Positions 11,309 to 37,027 of a stretch of 64,000 nucleotides of DNA are shown one piece after another; position 1 is the stretch's first letter, and every line of letters begins with the position of its first letter. The translations under genes were made by a program, and so were the position numbers. Origin of the DNA: an uncultured Candidatus Rokubacteria bacterium (GTDB lineage: Bacteria; Methylomirabilota; Methylomirabilia; Rokubacteriales; CSP1-6); assembly GCA_963789955.1 (NCBI GenBank), contig CAWBMV010000020.1, forward strand, positions 86,111 through 150,110, in the 5' to 3' direction. Under the pieces are notes generated by a model. It was not told the DNA's origin. It worked only from the letters and a program-made list of their open reading frames with translations, and did not search any database.

Positions 11309-12183
11309 GGGAGCCGCTCCAGCACGCGCAGCTTCGCGCTCCTGGCGCGGGGATTCGCCCGCACCTCGTCGTCGCTGGGCTGACGCGGCGACGGCTCGAG
11401 CTCGGCGAATCCCGCCGGCTCCAGAGCCCGGAACGTCTGCTTCACGATGCGATCTTCGCCCGAATGAAACGAGATGACGCCCAGACGGCCGCCGGCCGTC
11501 AGGAGAGCGGGCGCCTGCGCCAGCGCGTTTCGGAGCGCGCCGGGCTCGTCGTTGACCGCCATGCGGATCGCCTGGAAGGTCCGCGTGGCGACGTGCAAGC
11601 GGCGCGGCCACGCCGCGCGAGGTACCGCGCCGCGGACCGCCGCCACGAGGTCGCCCGTCCGCGCCAGGGGGCGGCGGCGGACGATGGCCCGCGCGATCCG
11701 CCGCGCGTGCGGCTCCTCGCCGTACTCGAAGATGATTCGCGCCAGCTCCGCCTCGGGGACGTGGTTCAGGAGCTTGCCCGCCGGCTCGCCGCTCGAGGGA
11801 TCCAGCCGCATGTCGAGCGGCTCGTCCCCCTGGAACGAGAACCCGCGCCCCGACTGCTCGAGCTGCCACGACGACACGCCCAGATCCATGAGAATCGAGC
11901 GCGCGCGGTCGACGCCGCGCTCGGCGGCGGCCTCGGCGAGACGGCCGAAGCTCGAGTGAGCGAGGGCGACGCGGTCGCCGAACGGCGTCAGGCGTTCGCG
12001 CGCCTGCGCGAGCGCCGCGGCGTCCGTGTCGAGGCCGAGCAGGCGCACGGAGCTGGCGCTGGCGCTCAAGATCGCCTCGGCGTGACCACCCATACCCACC
12101 GTCGCATCGATCACCCACCCCTCGTCGCGCGGTCGCAAGAAGAACACGACCTCGTCGACGAGCACCGGAACGTGAACCGCTAC
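11305..12183 (-). CDS. rsmH: 16S rRNA m4C1402 methyltransferase (start codon uncertain)
   Basis: HVPVL, DATVGMGGHA, DLGVSS, RGFSF, LDMR, FQAIRMAVN, ISFHSGEDR, NPRARSAKLR. Confidence 0.95.
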   Translation of the reverse strand, partial: VAVHVPVLVDEVVFFLRPRDEGWVIDATVGMGGHAEAILSASASSVRLLGLDTDAAALAQARERLTPFGDRVALAHSSFGRLAEAAAERGVDRARSILMDLGVSSWQLEQSGRGFSFQGDEPLDMRLDPSSGEPAGKLLNHVPEAELARIIFEYGEEPHARRIARAIVRRRPLARTGDLVAAVRGAVPRAAWPRRLHVATRTFQAIRMAVNDEPGALRNALAQAPALLTAGGRLGVISFHSGEDRIVKQTFRALEPAGFAELEPSPRQPSDDEVRANPRARSAKLRVLERLP

Positions 12184-12623
12184 ACTCCCAGGCCCGATAG
12201 CCTTTCGAACAACGTCGGCAGCCGCTCGGCGCGTGTGCGCTCGTACTCGTCGAACCGGCTGCGATCCCACACCTCGAACTGGGGAAGCCCGCCGCCCACG
12301 AGCGTGACTTCCTTCTTCGAGAGTCCCGCCTGCTCGCGCACGTCCGGCGGGATGAGCACGCGCCCTGCCGCGTCGAGCGTCGCGTCCTTCGCGCGCGAGA
12401 TGTAGAGCCGGCCCAGCTCACGCACCTCGGGATTGAAGATCGACTGCTCGCGCAACTTCGTCTCGATGCGCTGCCACTCCTCCAACGGATGCACCTCGAG
12501 GCAGTAATCATTCGGGACGACGACCAGCGCGCCGTCGTACTGCGCGAGCGTGTCCCGGAATTTCGCCGGCACGCTCAGGCGCCCTTTCGGATCGATCGTG
12601 TGCTGGTACCGTCCTCTAAACAT
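12180..12623 (-). CDS. mraZ: division/cell wall cluster transcriptional repressor MraZ
   Basis: MFRGRYQHTIDPKGRLSVP and LDAAGRVLIP repeats; first gene of the dcw cluster. Confidence 0.96.
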   Translation of the reverse strand: MFRGRYQHTIDPKGRLSVPAKFRDTLAQYDGALVVVPNDYCLEVHPLEEWQRIETKLREQSIFNPEVRELGRLYISRAKDATLDAAGRVLIPPDVREQAGLSKKEVTLVGGGLPQFEVWDRSRFDEYERTRAERLPTLFERLSGLGV

Positions 12624-22702: not shown

Positions 22703-25700
22703 TCAGAAGCCCAGAGCCCGCACTTCGTCGCGGAAGCGCTGGACGTTGCGGAGCTTGATCTCCTCGTAGCCTCGGATCACATCGGGCAGCCCGGCAAGCT
22801 TCACCGCCCGCTCGTAGCTCTCCGGCGAGAGACCGACCAGCGCCTTTTCGACGAGGGCCCGATACTCGCCGACCAGCTGCCGCTCGACCCGGCGCACCGC
22901 GGCGAACCCGAAGGGATCGAGCGGCGTGCCGCGCAGCACCTTCATGCGGGCCAGCACCTTGAAGACCGAGCCGAACCACGGGCCGAGCTTGAGCTTCTCC
23001 TTGAGACCGAAAGCCCGGAGCATCGGCGGGTGGAGATTGTAGGAGAGCTTCACCCCGCCGGGGAACTCCTCGGCCAGTGCGCGGCCGATGTCGGGCTTGA
23101 GCGAGAGGCGCGCCACTTCGTACTCGTCCTTGTAGGCCATCAGCTTGAAGAGATAGCGCGCGACCGCCTCGGCCAGGCGCGACTCTCCCGGCACGGTTGC
23201 GGCTTCGGCCTCGCGCACGCGCCGGACGAACTGAGCGTACGCGCGCGCGTAGCCCGCGCTCTTGTAGGCGATCAGCTCGGGCACGCGGATCTCCAGGAGC
23301 CGCTCGAGCTCGCCCGCGCCGCCGACCGAGTCCACGATGGTGCGTGCCTGCGCCGATAGCTCCGGCGCCGTCGCGATGGCGCCCAGGCGCCGCCGGACCA
23401 CCGTGCGCGCCCACGCTGGATCCGCCACCAGCAGCCGGCCCACGCGGAACGCCTGGCTGTTCATCTGCACGGAGACGCCGTTCAACACGATCGCTTCCTC
23501 GATCGCCGCCTCGCTCACGGGCAAGGCGCCCGCCTGCCAGGCCGCGCCGAGCACGATCATGTTGGCCGCCATGTGGTCGTCGAAGAGCGTCTCGGCCAAT
23601 CCGAGCGCGTCCAGGAAGACGTTCTCGTCCTTGCGGGTCACGCGATTGATCGAGGTGATCGAGTCCGTTGGCCTCGGGGAACTCGACCGCCGTCGACGTC
23701 ACCATCGCGCCGGTCGGCACCTGGCTGGTCGAGACGATCGCGATCGTGCGCTCGGGGCGCGCGTGATCGAGGTTCTGCGGCGAGGTCGCCACGAGGATGT
23801 CGAAGCCGAGATAGCAGTCCGCGGAGCCGGCCGCGATCTTGGACGAGGCCTGCGTGGCCCGGTCGAGGATCTTCAGATGCGAGACCACCGGCCCGCCCTT
23901 CTGGCTCAGACCGGTCTGATCGAGGCCGCGCACGAGCTTGCCGTCGAGGAGCGCGGCGGTGCCCAGGATCTGGTTGACCGTGACGACGCCGGTGCCGCCG
24001 ATGCCCATCATGAAGACGTTGGCCTCGGCCGGGACCTTGGCGTCCGGCTCGGGCAAGGTCCGGTCGACCTTGAAGACCCGGCGCTCCTTCTTTCGCGGAT
24101 CCGCGAGCGGCACCACCGTCAGGAACGACGGGCAGTCACCCTTCAGGCACGAGTAGTCCTTGTTGCAGGACGACTGATGGATCTGCGTCTTGCGCCCGAA
24201 CTCGGTCTCGACCGGATGCACCGACAGGCAGTTGCTCTTCACGCCGCAGTCGCCGCATCCCTCGCAGATCGCCTCGTTGATGAAGACGCGCATCTCGGGA
24301 TCGGGCAGCCGGCCACGCTTGCGCAGGCGCCGCTTCTCGGCGGCGCACCGCTGGTCGTACACGAGGGCCGTGACGCCGGGGATATCGCGCAGCAACCGCT
24401 GAGCCTCGTCGAGCCGATCGCGATGCCACACCTCGACGCCGGACGCCCACGCGGTGCCTTTCGGATACTTGTCGGGCTCGTCGGTCATCACGATGATGCG
24501 CTTGACGCCCTCGGCGGCGATCGAGCGCGTCAGCTCGGGCACCGGCATCGCGCCCGCGGCGTCCTGCCCGCCCGTCATCGCCACCGCCGAGTTGTAGAGG
24601 ATCTTGTAGGTGATGTTGGCGCTCGAGGCGACCGCCTGACGGATCGCCAGGGAGCCGGAGTGGAAGAAGGTGCCGTCGCCGAGGTTCTGGAAGAGATGCT
24701 TCGTCTCGGTGAAGGGCGCGATGCCCACCCACTGCACACCTTCGCCGCCCATGTGCGTGAGCCCCATCGTGCGGCGGTCCATCAAGAGCGCCATGCCGTG
24801 GCAGCCGATGCCCGCGCTGGCCATCGACCCCTCGGGCAGTACGGTCGAGCGGTTGTGCGGGCAGCCCGAGCAGAAGTAGGGCTGACGGCTCAGGGTCAGC
24901 GGCGCGGGCCGCTGGCGCAACGCCTCGAGCAGCGCCACACGCGCGGTGATCGAATCGAGATGGATTCGGCGCTCGAGACGCGAGGCCAGGATCTGGGCGA
25001 TCCGGTCGGCGTCGAGCTCGCTGTCGGCGGGCACGAGCGGACGGCCCTGCTCGTCCTGCTTGCCGACCACCCGGGGGCGCTCGGCCTGGTTATAGAGGAT
25101 GTCGCGGATGAAGAGCTCGCAGAACGCGCGCTTCTCCTCGATGACCAGGAGCTCCTCGAGACCCAGGGCGAACTCGCGGACCGTACCCCGGCTCCATCGG
25201 GAACATCATCTCGATCTGCATCAGACGGATGCCGTACTGCCGGAGCGCCGCGTTGTCGAGCCCGAGCTCGGCGAGCGCCTCGCGCAGGTCGTAGTACGTC
25301 TTGCCGGGCGCCGCGATGCCGAGCCACGCGTTCGGCGTCGGCAACGTGATGCGATTGAGCTTGTTCGCCGCGGCGAACGCCTTCGCCGCCTCGAGCCGCC
25401 CGTAGTGGATCTCGCGCTCGGCCTCGAGCCCCCACGGCGGCATCAAGAGCGGGGTCTGCCGCGCCTGCCAGGGCCGTCCTTCATAGAGGAAGCCCGGATC
25501 GGCGATGACGATACGGTCGGGCGCCACCTCGGCCGTGCCGATCTCGTCGGCCACGTTGGTGACGATCTTGAAGCCGACCCAGAGCCCGGAGTAGCGCGAG
25601 AGCTCGAAGCCGAGCCGGCCGAGGTCGAGGATCTCCTGCGCGCTGCCGGGATAGAGCACCGGGAAGAGCGCGTCGTAGAACGCCACTTCCGAGTGCGACG

Positions 25701-26169
25701 GGATCGTCGATGACTTCGAGAGCGGATCGTCGCCGCCGAGCGCCAGCACGCCGCCGTTGCGCCCGACACCGGCGAAGTTCGCGTGCTTGAAGATGTCGCC
25801 GGTGCGATCGACACCCGGGCCCTTGCCGTACCACATGCCGAGCACGCCGTCGTACTTCGGCTGCGGGAACAGATTGGCGAGCTGGCTGCCGTAGACGGCC
25901 GTCGCGCCGAGGTCCTCGTTGACACCCGAGAGGAAGACGACGTTGTGCTGACGGAGCAGGTCGGGGTTCCGCTCCAGGGTGAGATCCAGTCCGCCCAGCG
26001 GCGAGCCGCGATAGCCGGAGATGAGGGTAGCGGTGTTGAGCCCGCGGCGCTTGTCGGCGCGGTGCTGGTCGAGCGGCAAACGCACCAACGCCTGAATGCC
26101 CGAGAGGAAGATGAGACCTTCCTCCTGGCGGTATTTGGCGTCCAGAGTGAAATCACGCTTGATCGCCAT
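22703..26169 (-). CDS. fused indolepyruvate ferredoxin oxidoreductase family protein (frameshifts near 23650 and 25185)
   Basis: SGYRGSPLGG, NEDLGAT, WYGKGPGVDR, PYFCSGCPHN, GDGTFFHSG, CEGCGDC ferredoxin motif, GIGGTGVVT, KLMAYKDEYEVARL. Confidence 0.92.
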
Positions 26170-26249
26170 GGGTCTCCTCTCGAAGTGACTGCACGTATGA
26201 TACGGGGCGCCACGGGTGGGGCGCAAATCGGTCCGGAGGTGCGAGCGCG

Positions 26250-26672
26250 ATGATCGAGATCAGGCCGTGCCGTCTCGAGGAGTGTGCCGCGGTGCTGGCG
26301 ATGTGGGCGCGCGCGGGCGCGATTCCAAGCCCGACCGACACCCTCGAGGAGGTGAGCCACCTCGTGCGCGAGCACGCCGACTCTCTCCTCGTCGCGATCC
26401 GCCAGGGTTCCATCGTCGGAAGCATCATCGGCGGATGGGACGGCTGGCGCGGCAACATCTATCGCCTGGCGGTCGCCCCGGAGGCCCGGCGGGCCGGGCT
26501 CGCGCGGCGGCTCGTCGACGCCGCCGAGCGCATGCTCGTCTCGAAGGGCGCGCGCCGGTTCTCAGCCCTCGTCGAGCGCCACGAGGCTCACGCGGTCGGT
26601 TTCTGGGACGCCCTCGCGGACCGTGGCTGGCACCGCGACGAGCGCATGATGCGCTACATCAAGATGGCCTAG
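26250..26672 (+). CDS. GNAT family N-acetyltransferase (YpeA-like)
   Basis: GWDGWRGNIYRLAVAPEARRAGLA acetyl-CoA motif A. Confidence 0.88.
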   Translation: MIEIRPCRLEECAAVLAMWARAGAIPSPTDTLEEVSHLVREHADSLLVAIRQGSIVGSIIGGWDGWRGNIYRLAVAPEARRAGLARRLVDAAERMLVSKGARRFSALVERHEAHAVGFWDALADRGWHRDERMMRYIKMA

Positions 26673-26740
26673 CCGGCGGCTGGAAAAGGCCCATCTGCTA
26701 CGTTGGCGCCCTCGTAGCTGGACCTTTTCCAGCCGCCGGC
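26672..26740. terminator. long hairpin between convergent genes
   Basis: Perfect 18-bp arms GCCGGCGGCTGGAAAAGG (26672-26689) / CCTTTTCCAGCCGCCGGC (26723-26740) plus inner GCTACG/CGTAGC stem. Confidence 0.55.
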
Positions 26741-26757
26741 CGGTCTGCAGGCTTCGG

Positions 26758-27228
26758 CTAGGTCGGGCGCCACAGGCCGCGGTGGGCGCCGCGTGCTTCG
26801 CGCTGGAGCTTCATGAAGAGGTCCTGGTGTCGCACGTTCGGCGGGACCGTCATGACCTGGGCATAGCCGAGTCGAAGCAGCTCCGCGTTGACCATCGTGT
26901 TGCCCACCCAGACGTAGGCCAGGAGCCGCCCGTAGCGATCCCGAGTGCGCACGTCCAGCTCGAGACGGACGTGGTGGCCATCGACGAGACGGCGGTTCAC
27001 CTCGGCCGCTTCACGACCGCCCGGCTCTTCGCCCTTGATCGGATGGTGGATCTCCGGAGAGTTGACGCCGATGTAGCGGATCTTCTCCACGCGATCGCCG
27101 AGCTGCACATAGATCGTGTCGCCGTCGACGACCTTGACGACCGTGCCTTCGATCGAACCGGCCGCTGCCGAGCTCGCCGCGAGGAACAGGAGGAGCGGAA
27201 CGAGAAGATGAGCTCGGCGGAGCGCCAC
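26758..27228 (-). CDS. secreted thermonuclease (SNase) family protein
   Basis: Signal peptide; VVDGDTI, RYIGVNSPE, DRYGRLLAYV, NAELLRLGYA, RGLW. Confidence 0.92.
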   Translation of the reverse strand: MALRRAHLLVPLLLFLAASSAAAGSIEGTVVKVVDGDTIYVQLGDRVEKIRYIGVNSPEIHHPIKGEEPGGREAAEVNRRLVDGHHVRLELDVRTRDRYGRLLAYVWVGNTMVNAELLRLGYAQVMTVPPNVRHQDLFMKLQREARGAHRGLWRPT

Positions 27229-27291
27229 GCCGACACGGTGTCACCGCGGGTCGACGGGTGTCAAGAATTGGAGACGGCGAAGCGTGGATTG

Positions 27292-27531
27292 CTACTGGAC
27301 GCGGAACATGGCGTAGCCGAGGGACCTCAACTGCGTGTCGACGAACGGCTGATGGCGGCGATCGCTGCTTCTCCGCTCGCCGGTGTCCCTGTTGGCCTCG
27401 CCCAGGCGACGGTCACGACCGGATCGACGATCCAGGAAGACCTCGACGTTTTCTTCGGCGGCGAACTGCCGTGTGAGGTACTCACACAGGCTGGCCTGGT
27501 CGCGCGCGACGATGAAGTAGTGCCGAGTCAT
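27292..27531 (-). CDS. Arg-repeat microprotein, paralog 2 (79 aa)
   Basis: MTRHYFIVARDQASLCEYL...VEVFLDRRSGRDRR...ERRSSDRR...LRSLGY. Confidence 0.75.
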   Translation of the reverse strand: MTRHYFIVARDQASLCEYLTRQFAAEENVEVFLDRRSGRDRRLGEANRDTGERRSSDRRHQPFVDTQLRSLGYAMFRVQ

Positions 27532-27571
27532 GACTGCCACACGGCAATTTTCCACGAAACGCGCGCGAGGG

Positions 27572-28091
27572 TCAAGGTTGGCGGAGGCGTCCGAGGGCCC
27601 GTCGGGCCTGTCGCGCTTTCTTGGAAAGTCGGCGGGGGTTACCGCGCTTCTCCCGACCCGGCTCATCGTCGGAATCGTCCTTTGAATCGGGCGTATCCGC
27701 GCCCGACGAGCTTTCCGGAACTTCCAGCGCTTCCAGAAATTGCTCGGCCGTCAGCACCGCGCTCCCGGCCCGCCGGGCGGCGTCCTGGACCTTCCGATCC
27801 GAGCTGACGACGACGGCGCCGTTTCGCAGCTGCCGCGCGAGCCGCATCAGCTCATCGTCGGCCGTCAGCGGCGGGCGCGAGAAGACCACACGAATGCGTC
27901 CCGGCGGCGGCGTGCCGCCGGAGAGTCGCGCCCCGTCGAACACGACGGTGAACTCGTCCTTCGGGGCGCGGTCGGCCCGCGCGATGAGAGTGCACGAGCG
28001 CTCGCCGTCCCGCTTCCAGGCTCTCGGCTTCTCGAGCCCGGAGGTCCGGATCGCGTCGGATGAGGTTGTAGCCATCGACGAGCCAGCGCAT
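27572..28091 (-). CDS. YacP/Rae1-like NYN-domain ribonuclease (frameshift near 27990)
   Basis: MRWLVDGYNLI, VVFDG, TADDEL, VVSSDRKVQ acidic NYN motifs. Confidence 0.82.
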
Positions 28092-28132
28092 GAGCCAAGT
28101 ATCCTATTCTCTCCTCCGATACGGAACGATCC

Positions 28133-29311
28133 ATGGACGATCCTTCGCTGATCCTGGTCGGGGGCGGCTCCCTGACGCCCGAGTCCGCGCGGTCCCTTCC
28201 GCCCGGCGGCATCGTCCGATTGATGGTCTATCGACCCTCGATCCCGCCGGTTGACGTGGGTGACGTGGTAGAGGTCATCCCGGGAGCGCGCGGACGCGTC
28301 GGTGACCTCGTGCTCTGTGTCGACGCCGATCGATGTGAGCTCGGACGGGTTATCAGTCATGACGGACCTTCCGTCGTGATCGAAGTCGGCGCGGAGGGGA
28401 TTCGCCACGCGCTCGGCGCCGGTGCCGTCCTCGGTGTCGCGGCGGCTCTCGAGCAGGGCGATCTGCTGTTCGACCTCCAGCGCGGACGCTGGCGCGCGGC
28501 GGGCCGCCTCGCGGCGACCGTCCCGGCCCGGCTCGGCGGCTTCATGACGGCCCTGTCGTGGCTGGAGCGCCTGCGCCGCCCATTGTTCCCGCCGCTCTTC
28601 ATGGGCAGCGAGGCGCAGCTGCTGGAGCGCCTCACCGCCGCCTACGACACTGAGGTCGAGGTCACCGGCCGCGAGACGGCGCTCCTGCCCGAGGAGCAGA
28701 CTTTGCTCGAGCATCATCTACGGCCAGGCCAGCGGCTGCTCGACGTGGGCTGCGGGGCGGGCCGCGAGGCGATCGGCTTCGCGCGCGCAGGGCTATCCGT
28801 CGTCGGGATCGACGTGGCGCCGGCGATGGTGGCCCTGGCGCGCGCGCGGGCGCGGCAGGCGGGACTCACGATCGAGCTCGCAGTTGCCGAGCCTCTGACC
28901 TTGCCCGCGAACTTCGGCCGGTTCGACGCGGTCTACTTCAGCCCGGGGATCTACGCCCACATCCCCAGTCGAGAGCGCCGCGTGCGGACGCTCTCGCGGC
29001 TACGCGAGATGCTCGCCCCAGGCGGGCTGATCGTGGTCGGTCCCGTTCTCGCCCCGACCCTGCGAGCGTTCTCCCGCGCCCGTCTCGTCGACGCGCTCCG
29101 GAGGGTTGGCCGCCGTGCGGGCCTCCACCGGCTGGCCGAGCCAGGCGACCGCTTGTATCGCGGTCACGCGCTCGACCGCGCCGCGACCTCGCACCGCTAC
29201 ATCCACTACTTCAGCACCAGCGAGGAGGCCGAGATGGAGATGGGGGAAGCCGGCCTCGCGGTGACCGAGCGGCTCGACGTGACCTGCTGGATCCTCCGCC
29301 CGCGCAGCTGA
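28133..29311 (+). CDS. degenerate S24/S26-like domain fused to class I SAM-dependent methyltransferase
   Basis: C-half LLDVGCGAGRE, VVGIDVA, FDAV, LAPGG; N-half aligns by eye with the S26 peptidase at 33623-34068. Confidence 0.8.
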   Translation: MDDPSLILVGGGSLTPESARSLPPGGIVRLMVYRPSIPPVDVGDVVEVIPGARGRVGDLVLCVDADRCELGRVISHDGPSVVIEVGAEGIRHALGAGAVLGVAAALEQGDLLFDLQRGRWRAAGRLAATVPARLGGFMTALSWLERLRRPLFPPLFMGSEAQLLERLTAAYDTEVEVTGRETALLPEEQTLLEHHLRPGQRLLDVGCGAGREAIGFARAGLSVVGIDVAPAMVALARARARQAGLTIELAVAEPLTLPANFGRFDAVYFSPGIYAHIPSRERRVRTLSRLREMLAPGGLIVVGPVLAPTLRAFSRARLVDALRRVGRRAGLHRLAEPGDRLYRGHALDRAATSHRYIHYFSTSEEAEMEMGEAGLAVTERLDVTCWILRPRS

Positions 29312-30487
29312 CTAGCGAAGCTGGCGTGCCGCCAGCCAGCACACTCTCAGCGGATGCACGGCGCGATAGAGCGGCACCTGCCACGGCTCGAGCGCGTAGT
29401 GGTGCCTGAGCCACGTGGCCGAGGGAAAGAACGTCCACGCGAAGACCCGCATGACGTCGGACGCGCGGTCCATCAGGAGCGTCTGAGCCGGATAGACGCG
29501 CGTGTCGTCGAGCGCGCCCGCGAGACTCGGTGGCGCGGACGCGCCGATGCGCTCCGCGACCGCCGCGCGGCGCCATCGGCCCCGCTCGAGGCGTTCGAGG
29601 AGCCTGGCAGGGAGCGGCGTGTCGAACGAGCGCGTGACGACACAGAGCGTCCAGCCGATGAGCGTCCGGACGCGCCAGCGGTCGGCCTCCTTCACGAGGA
29701 GGTCCCAGTCGAGCTCAGCGGCAAATCGGCGGACGACCGCATCGATATCGGCGTACCAGAGCGCGCGCGCGAAGTCCGAGCCGAGCGTCAGGTGCAGGAC
29801 GAGGTGCAGCAGCAGATCCTCGGGCGAGAGCATGAGGCTCTGACCCTCGGGCGTGAGGAGCGGCCGGGCCCGACTCCACATCCCCTCGTGGTCGACCTCG
29901 ACGACCCCCTCGAATCGGAGGTAGCGCGCGGCATGCCAGTGGAGATCGATCCGCGTCCCGTCGCGCACGAGCTCTGCGAAGCTCCGCGACTCGCCGAGGA
30001 GATCGGCTCCTTCCCCGGGCGTCCGATATCCGAGGGCCCGCAGCGTGGCGAGCGCGACAGCGCGTTCTGTCGGACGCACGAGGAGGTCGACGTCCGCCAT
30101 CGGTCGGAGACCAGGCTCGGCGTAGACGACATTCGCGAGCGCCATACCCTTGAGGGTGAGTGTCACGACACCCGCCTGGCGAAGCGCCGCGGTCGCTTCG
30201 CCCCAGTGACGCGCGAGCACGGCGTTCGCGGCCCAGACGGCCCGCGCGACCTCGGTCAGACGACGACGCGCCGGAGTCGGCAGGCGATCGAGCAGATCGA
30301 GGCGATGAAGGTGGGAGCGGAGAAGAGGCGCCGTGCCTTCGCGAACCGCGAGCTCGACGAGAGCGGGCCAGTCGACGGCGCCGGACACGAGGGCCGCGAG
30401 CTCGACATCACCCGAGGATTCGACATGGCTGCGCGCGCCCAGGAGCAACAGTCGCGCGTCCGGATAGAGCTCGGCGCGCGGGAGCAT
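29312..30487 (-). CDS. nucleotidyltransferase of the lasso-cluster-associated (NTP_transf_5-like) family
   Basis: LTLKGMALA..VY..PGLRPMADVDLLV, IDLHW, LSPEDLLLHLVLH, WYADID; ATG 30487. Confidence 0.85.
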   Translation of the reverse strand: MLPRAELYPDARLLLLGARSHVESSGDVELAALVSGAVDWPALVELAVREGTAPLLRSHLHRLDLLDRLPTPARRRLTEVARAVWAANAVLARHWGEATAALRQAGVVTLTLKGMALANVVYAEPGLRPMADVDLLVRPTERAVALATLRALGYRTPGEGADLLGESRSFAELVRDGTRIDLHWHAARYLRFEGVVEVDHEGMWSRARPLLTPEGQSLMLSPEDLLLHLVLHLTLGSDFARALWYADIDAVVRRFAAELDWDLLVKEADRWRVRTLIGWTLCVVTRSFDTPLPARLLERLERGRWRRAAVAERIGASAPPSLAGALDDTRVYPAQTLLMDRASDVMRVFAWTFFPSATWLRHHYALEPWQVPLYRAVHPLRVCWLAARQLR

Positions 30488-30492
30488 GCCGC

Positions 30493-30654
30493 CTACGACG
30501 TCGTGCTCGTCCGACTCCCCTTGCCCATACTCGTCCGCTGCGCGTTGCTGCACGTCCCGTTGGTGGCGCGGCAGCACGTGGTCGTGTCGGCGCCGAAGAT
30601 ACTACTCGGCTCGAGCATGGGCTTCTCGTAGGGCCGCTTGTCCTGGGTTGCCAT
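30493..30654 (-). CDS. putative RiPP precursor peptide (53 aa)
   Basis: GGAGGAG RBS; MATQDKRPYEKPMLEPSSIFGADTTTCCRATNGTCSNAQRTSMGKGSRTSTTS with a YxxPxL RRE-binding motif and a Cys/Ser/Thr-rich core; sits between rSAM and nucleotidyltransferase genes. Confidence 0.85.
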   Translation of the reverse strand: MATQDKRPYEKPMLEPSSIFGADTTTCCRATNGTCSNAQRTSMGKGSRTSTTS

Positions 30655-31789
30655 CGTCAGCTCCTCCCGCGGTACGGATCTGGTAAAGACGGCGCTGGGC
30701 GCCGGCAAGCGTGCGCGCCCGCTCGTGGCATTGCTTCCACTCGCCCTCGCCGCGTTCGAGCAGGTTGTCGCCATGGCAGCGGTTGCAGAACCCGACGACC
30801 TCGCAGGAGGAGCACTCCGGCAGGTCGGCGTAGTGCTGGACCGACAGAAGATCCCGGATCGCCGGCGGCGGGGCCGTCCAGAGCTCGCGGAACGGCGTTT
30901 GCCGCACGTTGCCCATGGGGACGCGAAACGCGATGCACGGGAACACGTTGCCGTACGGATCGATGCAGCAGCCATTCGTCGCGGGTCCGCACGTGGCGCG
31001 CTGGCGGGCAACGTCCTCGGGGCGGCCTTCCTGCGGCTCGAGCTGCTCGCTCCACGTCGACTCGCGGAGGTACCGGAGCAGCTCGTCGCCGTCGAGCTGA
31101 TACTCCTGCGGCACGTGACCATCGCGCGGCACAGCGCCGTCGATCCGGGGGCTCACCTCGCAGCTATAGGTGTGAGTGAACACGCCGAGGTCCTTGCCGA
31201 GCCGGTCGAGCTTCGCGAGGCCGTCGATGTTCGGCTTCATCACGACGGTTTTGAGGTAGACGCGCAGGCCGTGGCGCTGCAGGCGCTCGACCGCGGCCAT
31301 GAGCCTCCGGAAGGAGCCCGGCACGCGGGTGATCGCATCGTGCACCGCCGGATCCGCGGAGAAGATCGACAGCTCGACGGTCAAGGGCTCGAGCGCCGCC
31401 AGCCGCTCGACCTTCGCCTCTGTGAGGCCGATCCCGTTGGTGAAGATCCGGTACGCGAAGCCGCGCCGGCGCGCATGCTCGGCAATGTCGAAGAAGTCGG
31501 GCCGTACCATGACCTCGCCGCCCGAGAGCGTCAGATAAAGCCCGCCCATGCCGGCCAACTCGTCGAGGAGCCTGCGGATCTCGTCGAGCGTGAGCTCGTG
31601 GCGGCGCACCTCCTGCTCGCGACCGTGCTCGACCACGCAGTAGCAATGGACGCACTGCTCGTTGCACCGGTAGGTGAGCTCGAGATGGACGTTGAGGGGC
31701 GTCCGATTCCGGTCCGCCTTGGCGCTGATCAGCGCCATCAGCGAGGCATCGCCGAGTCCCGCGTTCTGAGCGCAGCCTTCGAAGATCAT
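30602..31789 (-). CDS. radical SAM/SPASM peptide maturase
   Basis: ELTYRCNEQCVHC (CxxxCxxC), SGGE, TNG; SPASM C..ATNGCCIDPYGNVFPC...CSSCEVVGFCNRC; ATGA overlap with the PqqD gene. Confidence 0.92.
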   Translation of the reverse strand: MIFEGCAQNAGLGDASLMALISAKADRNRTPLNVHLELTYRCNEQCVHCYCVVEHGREQEVRRHELTLDEIRRLLDELAGMGGLYLTLSGGEVMVRPDFFDIAEHARRRGFAYRIFTNGIGLTEAKVERLAALEPLTVELSIFSADPAVHDAITRVPGSFRRLMAAVERLQRHGLRVYLKTVVMKPNIDGLAKLDRLGKDLGVFTHTYSCEVSPRIDGAVPRDGHVPQEYQLDGDELLRYLRESTWSEQLEPQEGRPEDVARQRATCGPATNGCCIDPYGNVFPCIAFRVPMGNVRQTPFRELWTAPPPAIRDLLSVQHYADLPECSSCEVVGFCNRCHGDNLLERGEGEWKQCHERARTLAGAQRRLYQIRTAGGADDGNPGQAALREAHARAE

Positions 31790-32082
31790 CGGCTCTCTCC
31801 CTTGCGCCGGCGCTCGATGGAGACCAGCTTGGCGTCGGCGAGCCGTTCGAGGAACTCGATCGCGTCGGCACGAATCGTCGGCTCGGGCGCTTCGAACTCG
31901 GCCGCGAGCACGCCGACGATCTCGTCCACGCTCCGCGCGCCGTCGCACAGATCCCAGATCCGCGCACCGACGCTGTTGAGAGGGTAAAGCAATCCGCCTT
32001 TGACGTCTACGACGAGAGCCTCCGTGTCGAGCGTCCGCCACGGCACCGATTTGCGCACGGGAAACGCGTCAGTCCCGTCCAT
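31786..32082 (-). CDS. PqqD family RiPP recognition element (RRE)
   Basis: LNSVGARIWDLCDGARSVDEIV..L..EF.....IRADAIEFLERL. Confidence 0.92.
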   Translation of the reverse strand: MDGTDAFPVRKSVPWRTLDTEALVVDVKGGLLYPLNSVGARIWDLCDGARSVDEIVGVLAAEFEAPEPTIRADAIEFLERLADAKLVSIERRRKGESR

Positions 32083-32872
32083 CGAGATAGCTCCAGAGCG
32101 CGGGCTCCGGTTTGAACGCGAGCTCCCACGTGGGCACCGTCGCGACGAGCGTGGCGAGCGTCTCGAGGAGTCGCGTGGTCACGCGGTCGTCGCGTTTGGG
32201 CAGCATGACCTCCGGGAACGCGCGGGCGACCGCCTCCGAGGCCGGCAGTCGCCGGCGGGCGAAGTGATCGGCCTTGCGAAGAAAGCACAGACCACGAATC
32301 GGGGCGCGCTCGTTCGTGCGAGCCATGGACGGGCCGCCGGATCCATAGAAGGGCGTCGCGCAGGCCTCCCAGCCTCGCGGGCCGGGACGTAGCGCGATCG
32401 TCTCGTCGTTGAGCACGGGCCGGTCGCCCGCGAGGCCGGCGATGGTGGTCTTGCCGCTGCCCGAGGGACCTGAGAAGACCCACGCGCGACCTCCGTCGAC
32501 GACGGAGGACGCGTGGAGCAGGACCCCACCTTTTTGCATGAGGAGGAAGCTGCACAGGAGCCGGAACAGGTCGGGATTCAGCGCCGGTCCGGGGCCAGCA
32601 CGGAAATCCACCCGGCGGCGTCCGAGATCGCCGTGCGCTCGAGAAGGATGGCTTGCGAGCGCGAAGCGACCCCCCTCCCACGTCGCCGACGGGCGCGGCG
32701 TGCGGCCCGGACGATAGCGCTCGGTCGCCCGCACGCGTACTCCGAAGGTCGGCGCCCGTCGTGACAAGAACGGACCGTATCGATCCTCCACCCACGCGCG
32801 CGCGGTGGCGCCGAGACCCGCGACGCCGAACACGACGCCCGCGACCTCGATCCGCGGAGTCCGTTCAGCCAA
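32069..32872 (-). CDS. HPr kinase-like peptide kinase
   Basis: GVLLHASSV, Walker A FSGPSGSGKTT, LNDE, ATPFYG. Confidence 0.82.
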   Translation of the reverse strand: MAERTPRIEVAGVVFGVAGLGATARAWVEDRYGPFLSRRAPTFGVRVRATERYRPGRTPRPSATWEGGRFALASHPSRAHGDLGRRRVDFRAGPGPALNPDLFRLLCSFLLMQKGGVLLHASSVVDGGRAWVFSGPSGSGKTTIAGLAGDRPVLNDETIALRPGPRGWEACATPFYGSGGPSMARTNERAPIRGLCFLRKADHFARRRLPASEAVARAFPEVMLPKRDDRVTTRLLETLATLVATVPTWELAFKPEPALWSYLDGRD

Positions 32873-33626
32873 CGGCCACGCCTTCGGTCAGCGGATTGGA
32901 CGCGTCAAGCCCGCGGCAGCGCAGGACCGCCACGACGCGGGTCGCGAGGTCGAGGGTGCGCTCGACGGCGGGGCGCCGCCGGTCGGCTTGCCAGATCGAA
33001 GGGAGCAATGCGCGCACCGCCTCGGCCGCACTCAGCGGTTCCTGGCCGCCGGGCAACCCGAGCGTCGTCGCGCGCCAGCCGTTCGCAGGCCGCGGGCCGT
33101 CGCCGACGAGAAACGGCGTCACAAGGACGGCGACGTGGTCCGCCGTGGGCCTCACCGCAAACCAACCAGCAGTCGCGGACGAAGGTATCGCCCAAGCCGG
33201 CAGCCCGCAGATAAGAGTCGCTGATTCGGTAGGGCCGAAGCAGGCGGCCTGAACGAGCAAGGTCTCGCACTCGGCGAGCCACAGCGCGGTCAGGGTCCGC
33301 ATGAGGCCGGCGACGTCGAATCCCGCCGCTATCTTGACGGTGACACGACCGCCCGGCACGTCGACGACCGCCCGGTAGTAGCCCGTCGACACGCGAAGAT
33401 TCCGACCGCGACGGCTCACGGTGGCCGCGTCGGCGACCGTGTCGCCGACCGATCGCCAGCCGTGGCGCCCGTCGCGCTCCTCGTAGTCGATTCGCACGGT
33501 CACGTCGGGCCGACGGCACGTGATGAATGCGGGATGGTTTCGAGCCCAGAACCCGGGCTTCGGGAAGGGACAGGACAGCTGAAAAACGATACCCGCGACG
33601 TCGACCTTGTCGGTGTGGCGCCTCAC
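32865..33626 (-). CDS. degenerate HPr kinase-like paralog (no Walker A)
   Basis: Shares VAG(I/V)VF, F...R.P...VR, TPF and ..EAV with 32069-32872, but has LLVQAAC for LLHASS and LICGLPA for FSGPSGSGKT. Confidence 0.6.
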   Translation of the reverse strand: MRRHTDKVDVAGIVFQLSCPFPKPGFWARNHPAFITCRRPDVTVRIDYEERDGRHGWRSVGDTVADAATVSRRGRNLRVSTGYYRAVVDVPGGRVTVKIAAGFDVAGLMRTLTALWLAECETLLVQAACFGPTESATLICGLPAWAIPSSATAGWFAVRPTADHVAVLVTPFLVGDGPRPANGWRATTLGLPGGQEPLSAAEAVRALLPSIWQADRRRPAVERTLDLATRVVAVLRCRGLDASNPLTEGVAVG

Positions 33627-34068
33627 GCCCGCGGCCGCGCGCGGCAGCGCGTACCAGCCACGCCGCCGCTCCGAAGGAGCGCGCGGCCGTGAAGATCGCC
33701 AGCGCCCGTTGGCGGAGCGTCGACAGGTCGACGGTGACGCCGCGACGCTCGAACGCCGTCACGATGCCGAGGATCTGCGGCGCGGTCACCACCTCCGGCC
33801 CGACACCGCGATTGTCCGCGCGGGTCAGCAGCGCGGCGCCGCGCCGGCCGATCACGCGGTGACACACGAGGGTGCCCTCGCTCTCGTACGCGAGCAGATC
33901 GCCGAATCGCGCAGGCGCCGGAGGCGTGACGAAGATCCACGCGCCCGCACCGAGCAGGGGTCGCATGCTCCGGCCGCGTATCGGCAACCAGACCGACTCG
34001 CCGGCCCCGAGGCGTTCGCGGAGGATCTCGGTCACGACCGGTCGCCAGACGGCGGCGGGGCTCGACAT
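33623..34068 (-). CDS. S24/S26 family (signal peptidase I-like) Ser-His peptidase; apparent 1-nt indel near 3' end
   Basis: IRGRSMRPLL (catalytic Ser), GDLL, CHRVI, TRADN, ILGIV; natural stop probably the TGA at 33623 overlapping the next start. Confidence 0.78.
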
Positions 34069-34119
34069 ATCGCCTCATCCTACCCCGAATCATCGCCGCC
34101 CTCTGCTACCATCGCGCGC

Positions 34120-35736
34120 GTGACCGCCGCGACCCGCTGGCCCGAAGCCCACGCGTCGCGCGGGCTCGTCGCGACCCCGCACGCGCTCGCTTCCGAGGCC
34201 GGGCTGGCGATCCTCGCGCGCGGCGGCAACGCCGTGGACGCCGCGATCGCAGCCGGCGCAGCGATCGCCGTCGTCTATCCGCACATGAACGGGGTCGGCG
34301 GGGACAGCTTCTGGCTGATCTACGACGGGCGCCATCGCCGGCTGCGCGCGCTGAACGCGGCGGGCCGATCGGCGGCGGCGGCCGATCTCGAGCAATATCG
34401 CGCGCGCTTCGGCGTAGCGATTCCGGTGCGCGGCGGGGTCGCGGCGCTGACGGTGCCCGGCGTCGTCTCGGGCTGGTGGGCGGCCCACGCGCTGAGCCGC
34501 GACTCGCTGGGCTCCCCCATCACCTGGAGCACGCTGCTCGAGGCGGCGATCCATCACGCGCGCGACGGCTTCCCGCCGTCACAAAGCCAAGGTCGCGAGA
34601 CCGCCGACGCCACGGATCTCTTCGGTGACGCGACGCCGGCCGACCTCCGCGAGTCACTCTGGCCCGTCTTTCATCCCGAGCTCTTGAAGCGCGAGCGGTT
34701 CGTCCAGGCGGATCTGGCGTCGACCCTGGAAGAGATCGCCCGGAGCGGGGGTGACGCGTTCTATCGCGGCGCGCTCGCTCGCCGCCTCGCTCGAGCCGCT
34801 GGTGCCGCCGGCAGCCTCCTGACCGCCGACGATCTGGCGCGCCACCGGCCCGAGTGGGTCGAGCCGCTGCGCATTCCCTACCGCGGCGGCGAGGCCACGA
34901 GCTTTCCGCCGCCGACCCAGGGTTTCGCCGCGCTCGCGATCCTGTCGCTGCTCGAGGGGTTCGAGATCAAGTCCCTGGCCGAGGCCGACTACGTGCACCT
35001 CGTCGTCGAAGCGACGAAGCTCGCGTTCGAGGACCGCGATCGCTATCTCGCCGATCCGACGGTCGCGTCCGTTCCGGTCGCCCAGTGCCTCGATCCGGCG
35101 CGCCTCGCCGAGCGCCGCCGGCGAATCTCGCGACGGGCCGCGATGCCGGCCGCCGGACCGGCCGCGAAGGGCGACACGATCGCCATCGTCACCGCGGACG
35201 CGCAGGGGAACGCGGTGTCACTGATCCAGAGCCTCTACTGGGAATTCGGCTCGGGCGTGGTCGCGGGCGACACCGGCGTCCTTCTTCAGAACCGGGGCGC
35301 GTTCTTCTCGCTCGACCCGGGGCACGTGAATTGCCTGGCGCCGCACAAGCAGACGGCGCACACCTTGATCCCGTCCATGTACCTCGTCGACGGACGTCCG
35401 CGTCTCGTCTACGGCACGATGGGCGGAGAGGGCCAGCCGCAGACGCAGGCGGCCCTCGTCACGCGCATCGTCGATCGCGGACTCGGTCCACAAGCGGCGG
35501 TCGAGGCGCCGCGCTGGCTCTTCGGGCGAACCTGGGGCGAGGAGACCCGCTCGCTGAGGCTCGAGGATCGATTTGGCGACGACGTCCGGGACGCGCTTCG
35601 CGAGCGGGGGCACGAGGTGGAGATCGTCGAAGGTTGGAGCGATCTGATGGGCCACGCGCAGGTCATTCGTCTCGACGCGACCGGACTCACCGGCGCTTCG
35701 GATCCACGCGCCGACGGGGCGGCTCTCGGCTTCTAG
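34120..35736 (+). CDS. ggt: gamma-glutamyltransferase family protein
   Basis: GGNAVDAAIA, GVGGDSF, TVPG, GDT (autoprocessing Thr), SLIQS, LQNRG, GTMGGEGQPQ, SDPRADG. Confidence 0.92.
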   Translation: MTAATRWPEAHASRGLVATPHALASEAGLAILARGGNAVDAAIAAGAAIAVVYPHMNGVGGDSFWLIYDGRHRRLRALNAAGRSAAAADLEQYRARFGVAIPVRGGVAALTVPGVVSGWWAAHALSRDSLGSPITWSTLLEAAIHHARDGFPPSQSQGRETADATDLFGDATPADLRESLWPVFHPELLKRERFVQADLASTLEEIARSGGDAFYRGALARRLARAAGAAGSLLTADDLARHRPEWVEPLRIPYRGGEATSFPPPTQGFAALAILSLLEGFEIKSLAEADYVHLVVEATKLAFEDRDRYLADPTVASVPVAQCLDPARLAERRRRISRRAAMPAAGPAAKGDTIAIVTADAQGNAVSLIQSLYWEFGSGVVAGDTGVLLQNRGAFFSLDPGHVNCLAPHKQTAHTLIPSMYLVDGRPRLVYGTMGGEGQPQTQAALVTRIVDRGLGPQAAVEAPRWLFGRTWGEETRSLRLEDRFGDDVRDALRERGHEVEIVEGWSDLMGHAQVIRLDATGLTGASDPRADGAALGF

Positions 35737-36948
35737 CTCAGCGGCAGCTCCCGCTCGAAGACCGTGAACGGGAGAGCGGCGCGCGGCGTCGAGGGCCTGG
35801 CGGATTTGCGCCTCGCCGCGGCCGGCGCCCTGCTGGAGCAAGGTCTCGAAGAAGGCCACGTAGAACGCGTCCGGCTCGACGACGACGGCCACCCGCGCCC
35901 GCAGTCCGGTCGCGTCGATCGTCGTCCGATAGGTGAGCGTCGTGCTCTTGCCGGGCATGAGGCGGGTGTCGAAGAGCTCGCGCGAGAGGTCGAGGGCCAC
36001 CTCCGCGACCGATGATCTGCTCCCGCCGGCTGCCGGCGACGACCTGGCCGGTATCGTCGACCAGCTCGAGCGCTCAGGACCACGCGCGGCGTGACGTACG
36101 TCGGCAACGCGTGGCCGATGCGCGTGCTGCTCACCCGGAGCGTGACGAGCGCGAGCTCGCCGGGGCGATAGCGCGGGGCCCCCGCCTTGGCCTCGATCGT
36201 GAGCCCGGACCGCACCATGCTCGAGATCGTGGATCCCGCGCCAGCGGTGGCGCCGGTCGGGCATGTGGCAGTCCTGGCACTGCACGCCCTGGCGCGCGAA
36301 GCGGCTCGCCTTCCACTCGTCGTAGGTCGCCTGGAGCAGCTTGCCGTTGAGCGCGAACCCGTCGGGCGTGAACTGGTGGCAGCCCCGGCAGAACTCGGCC
36401 TTGAGGAACGCCGGCGTTCGCGTCACGCCGTTGTGGGGCAAGGTCTCATGCGGGGCGCCGCTCGCCAGCGAGCCGTCTCGCCGGGGCGGGCCGAAGCGTT
36501 CGTGGCCCCGGACGTGACAGCCCGCGCACGGCACGCCCCGGCCCGCGAGCGAGGCGTCGTAGTCCGGGTTCTCGCGAAGCTCGCGGCCCACGGCCGCGAA
36601 GGGTCCCTGCTCGGCGAGCGGGGCGTGACAGACGAGACACGCGTGCGCCGACGACGGATCGCTCTCCCGCATCTCGACGAGCTGGCCGGCGACACCGGGT
36701 CCGCTCGCGGCGGCGTGCAGGCTCTCGCGCCAGTCGGCGAGCTGCGCGGGATGGCAGGTCCCGCACGACTCCGGCTGGAGCGAGGCTTCCAGCGGCGAGA
36801 ATCGCGCCGGCGGCGCGCCTTGCGGCGCCAGCGGCTGGCGCCAGTGCCGTCGGATGAAATCCTGGATCGCGTCGGCGCCGGCGGCCGCCGCGGCCCCGAG
36901 CAGCACGGTCGCGGCCGCCGCGCACGCGAGACGGAAGCGAAGTCGCAT
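35733..36948 (-). CDS. exported pentaheme c-type cytochrome (several frameshifts in the 3' third)
   Basis: Signal peptide; five CxxCH motifs CGTCH, CLVCH, CAGCH, CRGCH, CQDCH; GHALPT C-terminal segment. Confidence 0.85.
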
Positions 36949-37027
36949 CGACGGGATGCATGATAGCGTGCGCCGACTGCTGTACAGTAGGATCCGCAGT
37001 CATCCTGACCGCTTCCGGAGAACGCTG

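Follow-up and report, generated by a model that had tools for sequence, protein, structure and literature searches.

Linear polyphosphorylated peptides (LPPs) are made by the lppA-K-B-S-D-N cluster of Paenibacillus alginolyticus, and the following facts on them come from the report by Popov et al. 2026 (PMC13381572). The LPP precursor carries the motif YxxPxVLxHQxIxFETxxS, and residues L32, N33, V35, D70 and F74 of LppB fix the Tyr and Pro of the leader. LppS, a SpI-like protein, acts with LppB and cuts after F-E-T, with F-3, E-2 and T-1 all being needed. The kinase LppK phosphorylates Ser3 of the core, not the C-terminus, and rejects Thr at position 3; deletion of lppN caused no change in a heterologous host (PMC13381572). 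For pseudomycoidin, PsmK is described as phosphorylating the C-terminal Ser and PsmN as needed for a hexose on the same Ser (PMC6993621).

The words “radical” and “rSAM” do not occur in the main text of the LPP paper. In a term search of its supplements, Acidobacteriota SpI proteins with RREs fall in another network cluster, and “Radical_SAM” occurs once, as a matrix column (PMC13381572). These entries may bear on how far its authors saw radical-SAM (rSAM) clusters. Our literature search, which left subscription papers mostly outside its reach, found no study of a cluster of the rSAM-containing kind detailed herein or of its product; PMC7470986, PMC12710340 and PMC13692751 do not describe one in the passages matched by a term search.

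We have studied such a cluster in a 64,000-nt stretch of DNA (hereafter “the window”) from an uncultured Candidatus Rokubacteria bacterium. On comparative sequence grounds, a 53-codon ORF in the window is almost certainly a real RiPP precursor gene under purifying selection, and it is very probably the substrate of the operon that surrounds it.

The operon and its relation to described systems

The genes of the minus-strand operon overlap or abut one another and encode an S24/S26 peptidase, a kinase-like protein, an HprK-like kinase, an RRE, an rSAM/SPASM enzyme, the precursor and an NTP_transf_5 protein (Table 1).

Table 1. Features of the precursor locus, in coordinates of the window.
Feature	Position	Strand	Details
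Class I methyltransferase with N-terminal S26-like domain	28133..29311	plus	abuts NTP_transf_5 gene tail to tail
NTP_transf_5 (PF14907), nucleotidyltransferase fold	29312..30487	minus	DxD motif
Precursor gene, 53 aa	30493..30654	minus	leader YEKPML + FGA(DT); core C27-C28-R29, C35, invariant C-terminal S53
TGA, the rSAM stop in orthologues	30657..30659	minus	out of frame in present assembly
RBS GGAGGAG	30661..30667	minus	6 nt 5' of precursor ATG; (A/G)GGAG in 7/7 closest orthologues
Radical SAM/SPASM maturase	30602..31789	minus	CxxxCxxC 42-49; SPASM Cys 267, 274, 285, 326, 329, 335, 338, 354
Discrete RRE, PqqD family (PF05402)	31786..32082	minus	counterparts of LppB L32/N33/V35/D70/F74 are L35/N36/V38/D73/F77
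HprK-like kinase	32069..32872	minus	intact His, Walker A (GPSGSGKT), NDE motif
Pseudokinase	32865..33626	minus	kinase paralogue without Walker A and acidic motifs
S24/S26 (SEC11-like) peptidase	33623..34068	minus	S34, H70, D85; frameshifted 3' end, reads on to 32905

Judged by sequence, the closest described system is that of the LPPs and not that of the lasso peptides. The two clusters have in common a discrete RRE in which the residues that fix Tyr and Pro agree, and a YxxP leader (the binding being modelled here), a SpI/SEC11-like (archaeal-type) leader peptidase with Ser-His-Asp, an HprK-like kinase with an NTP transferase, and an F-x-x motif that closes the leader; neither has a lasso cyclase. 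The window's cluster nevertheless lies outside the LPPs in its motif, in Ser3, in the exporter and, presumably, in the linearity of the product. Its Tyr-to-Phe spacing is 11 rather than the 13 of LPP, FGA(D/E) stands where LPP has FET, and HQ is missing. There is no Ser at core position 3, but the C-terminal Ser is invariant. No MsbA-like exporter is nearby, and a scan of 43 ORFs (18.9-45.4 kb) found neither an exporter of any kind nor a glycosyltransferase. The LPP product is linear; the additions here are three conserved Cys and an rSAM/SPASM enzyme, the gene for which is intact and stands beside the precursor in 14/14 loci. A pseudokinase and a methyltransferase are also added, and the host does not belong to the Bacillota.

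Paeninodin and pseudomycoidin, as described in PMC6993621, share with this system a YxxPxL leader with a stand-alone RRE, an HprK-like kinase, a C-terminal Ser and an NTP transferase that is uncharacterised and has an Asp-x-Asp motif. They differ from it in that the present operon has an S26 peptidase, an rSAM enzyme and a Cys-rich core, and no macrolactam cyclase.

Sactipeptide and ranthipeptide systems (SkfB, AlbA, CteB and PapB) have family features that recur here, namely an RRE-assisted rSAM/SPASM enzyme with auxiliary-cluster Cys beside a Cys-containing precursor devoid of core aromatics; in PapB-type ranthipeptides, the spacing is Cys-x3-Asp/Glu. However, identity to those enzymes is only ~17-21%, the RRE is a separate gene here, and the kinase, NTP transferase and S26 peptidase are foreign to those systems; thioethers would be assigned here by analogy. 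The kinase, RRE and rSAM enzyme also match the models for SynChlorMet (ScmC/D/E/F), GeoRSP and HPr-rel-A weakly. For SynChlorMet the curated cut-offs are missed by a wide margin (ScmE 81 vs. 400 bits, ScmD 27.5 vs. 100, ScmC 16.8 vs. 125); for GeoRSP and HPr-rel-A, too, the operon proteins stay below the NCBIfam cut-offs, and the precursor matches no NCBIfam model.

The system thus looks like a hybrid: its leader handling is of the LPP type, its terminal Ser of the paeninodin type, and its maturase resembles those of sacti- and ranthipeptides. Since every module has a described counterpart, we do not consider it a new kind of system. It resembles the recently described phosphorylated peptides with an rSAM enzyme added, and its product would be new chemistry.

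The precursor gene

Translation of the minus strand from 30654 to 30493 gives MATQDKRPYEKPMLEPSSIFGADTTTCCRATNGTCSNAQRTSMGKGSRTSTTS*. The initial annotation, made from the letters of the window alone, had pointed to this ORF as hidden in the tail of a longer one, and it is indeed the tail of a 209-aa ORF (30493-31122). The annotation was also right that it has its own RBS, GGAGGAG at 30667-30661, which is kept as GGAG-type in the closest orthologues, and it correctly counted, over the C-terminal 33 residues, 3 Cys (C27, C28 and C35, that is, CC-x6-C) along with 14 Ser/Thr. The core has no aromatic residue.

A profile search yielded 82 homologues from 83 candidates, and these were aligned with the window peptide, none being dropped, to give 83 sequences. 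P8, Y9, P12, F20, G21, R29 and the C-terminal Ser are invariant among them, and L14 is found in 82/83. C27 is retained in 82, C28 in 81 and C35 in 82. The terminal residue is Ser in 83/83, never Thr; Thr occurs at -2 in 67 sequences and at -3 in 55. Position 25 is Thr in 58/83 and Gly in 22/83, and 82/83 have Thr or Ser at position 26. A sequence logo had been predicted to conserve YxxPxL, the Cys residues and a terminal Ser, and all of these are conserved in the alignment. A further search, run against representatives at 50% identity, matched 33, of which ~28 appear to be whole precursors; P0103 was discarded as a false positive, and P0080, P0091, P0105 and P0108 are apparently frameshifted or extended.

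Could the ORF be spurious, a high-GC by-product between two genes? No Pfam or NCBIfam family matched it, and most orthologues have other frames open too, as such a by-product might. We nonetheless regard this reading as vanishingly improbable, and the conservation of the precursor refutes it. In seven orthologous 162-nt genes, variation falls mainly on the third codon position (39/54, against 15 for the first and 11 for the second), and pN/pS is 0.11-0.29 (uncorrected; window vs. six other orthologues); the RBS is retained as well. To these are added the 82 homologues and a distant one in 42%-GC DNA that has a GGAGGA RBS and is accompanied by the same enzymes. In order, the genes in that locus encode an rSAM enzyme, a four-helix-bundle protein, the precursor, an S26 peptidase, a kinase, an RRE and an NTP transferase, with neither methyltransferase nor pseudokinase. 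This gene set implies that six genes form the core of the system and that two (methyltransferase and pseudokinase) are additions of particular lineages. A search of metagenomes with a single distant peptide returned one locus from 576 candidate stretches.

The gene is single-copy in its own genome: among 115,183 six-frame segments, a profile built from the 83 precursors had a single match, the window locus (E 3e-31), and a runner-up at 0.53. The initial annotation called the peptide unannotated. This stands insofar as it belongs to no Pfam or NCBIfam family (of the 10 precursors used as NCBIfam queries, P0001, P0050, P0058, P0070 and P0077 were whole, and some others were hand-cut and possibly out of frame), but the exact peptide is already present in the protein collection. 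Clustering at 90% identity puts it in a group of 92 members; among the 40 members listed, 16 are named, and every name listed is “hypothetical protein”. The close relatives that are named carry the labels Candidatus Rokubacteria or Methylomirabilia, which makes their phylum the most probable source of the window; one is labelled Binatia.

Within the phylum, the precursor with adjacent Cys (hereafter “CC-type”) occurs in 14/251 genomes and in 5/104 of those of best quality. In 14/14 of these loci the rSAM/SPASM gene immediately precedes it. An equivalent small ORF is therefore conserved in place in every orthologous cluster found, which bears out the initial identification of the precursor. Of the 14 fetched loci, BLAST searches found 12 with a methyltransferase, 8 with the pseudokinase and 11 with the S26 gene. 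The methyltransferase gene, convergent in the window, is on the same strand and between the precursor and NTP transferase genes in 5/14 loci. Three genomes (G029, 97% complete; G011, 66%; G222, 76%) gave no match for the S26 gene in a search run without a positive control, and the contigs of G011 and G222 stop inside the operon. The pseudokinase gene of the window is immediately upstream of that for the active kinase, and the 8/14 CC-type loci that have a pseudokinase all belong to the window's family.

A scan for promoters and terminators gave no promoter-like site and two terminator-like sites, both within genes, against 1.1 expected. Contigs of related strains from two RNA libraries span 29/30 and 16/30 bins of the region; there was no silent-stretch control, and such contigs give neither level nor strand. 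Among the 24 sequencing runs listed, none contained half of the searched words.

Probable single-base errors in the assembly

As assembled, the rSAM ORF ends at 30602 and so overlaps the precursor by 53 nt, with a length of 395 aa vs. 377 aa in close orthologues. The initial annotation had suspected an indel artefact, and the comparison agrees: a 1-base deletion peculiar to the present assembly is absent from the orthologues. The rSAM stop precedes the precursor Tyr codon in 13/13 other loci, and in the six closest it lies 2 nt before the precursor start. The G run at 30666-30668 has three G in the window vs. four in G004 and G011. Further, contigs of related strains from two DNA runs have an extra base at 30665 (depth 14.6 of 17.9 in one, 7.5 of 7.5 in the other); in one RNA run that spans the site, the extra base is not listed. 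The deletion is most likely an error of sequencing or assembly, and the overlap would then have no biological meaning.

One might instead suppose that the operon is decaying in the source strain and that the terminal frameshifts of the rSAM and S26 genes are real mutations. Both are peculiar to the window, as this supposition would have it. But the window assembly alone has unpaired single-base indels, at least eight of them, in 25.2-37.0 kb (25189-36957), most lying outside the operon, as expected of assembly errors. Both frameshifts also lie after all catalytic residues, with the last 2 residues of the rSAM enzyme replaced by 20 and the S26 peptidase altered after ~residue 137, and the DNA contigs of related strains restore the base at 30665. 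We consider decay very improbable. Among neighbouring genes, those for an indolepyruvate oxidoreductase-like protein (22.7-26.2 kb), a multiheme cytochrome (35.2-36.9 kb) and an M1 aminopeptidase (36.9-39.7 kb) are apparently split or extended.

Proposed recognition and cleavage of the leader

The discrete RRE is highly likely to bind the leader through Y9-x-x-P12-x-L14. Its best match in the PDB is the lasso RRE TbiB1 (E 3e-10), followed by two RREs from the LPP paper, and L35, N36, V38, D73 and F77 are invariant in 13 sequences. A predicted complex of the RRE with residues 1-36 of the precursor scored 0.50, vs. 0.02 for the best control, with contacts that agree to at least 96% and a partner pLDDT of at least 59, a result that the tool classes as weak support. 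The mark used for such scores was reached by 116/157 solved complexes and 2/215 mismatched pairs; of the 157, just 18 reached it at 0.60 or below, as did both mismatched pairs. Because like complexes have been solved (5v1u, 9x8z and 9x90), the score may reflect memorisation by the predictor.

The description of the leader as lasso-type holds for its RRE-binding motif, YxxPxL, but not for its processing: in place of a lasso B2 peptidase there is an S26/SEC11-like one, and LPP is the nearer model. A search of the organism's own genome, which is 87% complete, for a B2 peptidase (PF13471) gave no match, and the operon ORFs include no member of the macrolactam cyclase family. A lasso reading, with a cut by B2 after T-2/-1, was rejected for want of both enzymes. 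The operon peptidase matches Pfam S24 and TIGR02228, and its best PDB matches are SEC11A/C (E 5e-10); S34 and H70 are invariant, and D85 is nearly so, in 14 sequences.

FGA(D) aligns with the FET cleavage motif of LPP, making FGA/FET the likely site of the S26 cut. We therefore propose that the S26 peptidase probably cuts near residues 22-24 of a leader presented by the RRE, which would leave a core of 29-31 residues. The cut could fall at F-G-A|D23, with Phe at P3 and a core of D23-S53, or at A-D-T|T25, with an acid at P2, Thr at P1 and a core of T25-S53. Unmodified, these cores have calculated monoisotopic masses of 3183.38 Da (D23-S53) and 2967.30 Da (T25-S53). Longer variants of the precursor (FGAE-x5-CC) favour neither option over the other.

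A wider family of precursors

With the rSAM alignment as query, we took the best 80 of 570 confirmed loci, mostly from Acidobacteriota, four of which are CC-type repeats already counted. These were searched for a precursor motif (Y/W-x-x-P...F...C) that did not demand a terminal Ser. There were 53 matches in 50/80 loci, and 51 of them end in Ser; the other two are unlike precursors. Some of the 30/80 loci with no match are cut short, and others may differ in spacing. The common pattern is Y-x-K-P-x-F/L-x5-F-E-T-x-A-L-x-C-G-K-x5-8-C-x-Ser, followed by the stop. In these “CG-type” relatives, Cys occurs exactly twice, at a distance of 6-10 residues, and the residues between FET and Cys are mostly A, L, M or T.

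The window peptide is in register with this pattern: 11 residues separate Tyr and Phe, C27 is at Phe+7, C28 replaces Gly, and R29 replaces Lys. Distant CC-type peptides have F/L/Y/I-E-A/T at the FGA position, in agreement with the LPP motif, and one of them has FET with CCK, which bridges the two types. Sequence comparison thus identifies the window peptide as a Cys-Cys-Arg subtype of a widespread family defined by Y-x-x-P-x-F/L, F-E-T, C-G-K, C and a terminal Ser.

In a tree of 95 rSAM sequences (FastTree, midpoint root), 12/13 CC-type enzymes form one clade with support of 0.985; support for all 13 is 0.44. As the CC-type loci were chosen within one phylum, kinship explains the clade, which is therefore no evidence of co-evolution.

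Several further features were noted among the loci. One Acidobacteriota locus has two near-identical CG-type precursor genes 2.6 kb apart (L117:1599 and L117:4173). The second SPASM cluster motif is missing in 4/48 CG-type rSAM enzymes, and the rSAM enzymes at L027:9618-10667 and L007:289-1350 have lost it; the L027 precursor still has two Cys. The methyltransferase fused to a catalytically dead S26-like domain, a domain that lies at 28133-28552 (plus strand) in the window, recurs beside the CG-type precursor in L027. Several cassettes have as neighbours large proteins that are beta-propellers or look secreted (SBBP/DUF7948, RCC1 repeats, C25 peptidase; L025:7585-9780, L053:167-3154 and L142:1024-6390).

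The rSAM enzyme and the cysteines

By profile, the nearest solved relatives of the rSAM enzyme are PqqE and the sactipeptide maturase SkfB, at ~21% identity, and no curated NCBIfam family was matched above its cut-off; hence, the reaction cannot be read from homology. The structure model (mean pLDDT 81.6) matches known SPASM enzymes at 14-21% identity.

We give roughly even chances to a scheme in which the rSAM/SPASM enzyme would use C27, C28 and C35 as sulfur donors, forming thioether rings in place of the lasso ring. The conserved Cys, the intact SPASM domain and the lack of an aromatic core residue, which removes the usual cyclophane donors, favour thioethers. No conserved Asp/Glu acceptor was found after the Cys residues in the 83-sequence alignment, and the Cys-x3-Asp/Glu motif is absent, with T, N and Q at positions 31, 32 and 39, all of them variable.

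As no acceptor motif is conserved, epimerisation or other oxidation is a serious rival to thioether formation, if in our estimate a rather unlikely one. The enzyme would then act on the Ser/Thr-rich core in an EpeE/PoyD-like or anSME-like manner, and the Cys residues would serve as disulfides or metal ligands. The fold matches include EpeE and anSME, but EpeE ranks below SkfB, PqqE, SuiB and CteB. The spacing of 6-10 residues between the two Cys of the CG-type peptides fits a disulfide, but the three Cys of the CC-type cannot all pair. In radical-SAM epimerases a Cys serves as the H-atom donor, and CC-type enzymes have extra Cys when compared with CG-type ones (C51 in 13/13 vs. 0/48, C210 in 12/13 vs. 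0/48, C275 in 11/13 vs. 0/48). C210, which follows the last barrel strand in the structure model, could be such a donor. Against this, the extra Cys are missing from the wider family despite the common precursor pattern.

The terminal serine and the tailoring enzymes

The closest solved relative of the HprK-like kinase is PEPCK (E 0.1). The kinase, perhaps aided by its dead paralogue, probably phosphorylates or polyphosphorylates Ser53 at the C-terminus, as happens in paeninodin and pseudomycoidin. The terminal site is preferred because the peptide has no Ser3, and its invariant last Ser corresponds to the site used by PadeK and PsmK.

The alternative is placement as in LPP, in which the kinase would target T25/T26 or several Ser/Thr of the tail, the terminal Ser being kept for another reason, be it as a substrate of the rSAM enzyme or the NTP transferase or for recognition. 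LppK does modify Ser3 of its core, the leader and peptidase are LPP-like, and position 26 is almost always Thr or Ser. However, LppK refuses Thr at position 3, position 25 is often Gly, and in CG-type peptides the residues from FET to Cys are mostly A/L/M/T, while the terminal Ser is fixed. We judge this alternative improbable.

With Ser53 as the phosphorylation site, the PF14907 protein might add a hexose or a nucleotidyl group to the phospho-Ser, a step to which we assign about as much chance of being right as wrong. In lineages that have the gene, the methyltransferase would add a methyl group; its N-terminal domain is homologous to the S26 peptidase (hhalign 97.4%, E 1e-11), and the catalytic His is absent. 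The full scheme has as its most likely product a thioether-cross-linked core with a terminal Ser that is phosphorylated and then glycosylated or nucleotidylated; it could equally well prove correct or not.

Implications and genomic surroundings

The precursor supplies a substrate for widespread, unstudied clusters that join leader handling of the LPP/paeninodin type, phosphorylation, an NTP transferase and an rSAM enzyme. Now that the precursor is defined along with its likely cut sites and invariant positions, co-expression can directly test the rSAM reaction and the unexplained reaction of PF14907 proteins. The work also provides a defined RiPP from uncultured soil bacteria of the Rokubacteria type.

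A bolder reading is conceivable, although we hold it to be doubtful. Here, the peptides would form a three-way family (lasso, linear and thioether-cyclic) in which Cys rings made by rSAM enzymes take the place of the lasso ring; the terminal phospho-Ser would prime or anchor surface polysaccharide, with the PF14907 protein starting a glycan on the peptide-Ser-phosphate; and the pseudokinase and S26-like domain would dock the tailoring enzymes to the RRE-leader complex. The idea of a polysaccharide anchor comes from Wza/Wzc genes, which abut the NTP transferase gene in 2/14 loci and abut a second cassette in the organism's own genome, and from the capsule loci in which LPP and paeninodin clusters also sit, as stated in the LPP paper (PMC13381572). 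The window locus has no Wza/Wzc neighbours.

The second cassette of the same genome (L026:5005-11122; G000:C21 ~85000-91100) comprises genes for an S26 peptidase, an RRE, two rSAM enzymes, a precursor, a kinase, a third rSAM enzyme and an NTP_transf_5 protein, followed by convergent Wzc- and Wza-like genes. Its precursor has 64 aa, with a YVPPVL leader and three Cys, and ends in Ser-Ser. A third PqqD-family gene of the genome lies beside another rSAM gene (G000:C1:15324-15518). In another genome (G080), a second methyltransferase gene and a second NTP_transf_5 gene (L050:609-1664 and 11392-12495) flank the cassette, with transposase-like genes between.
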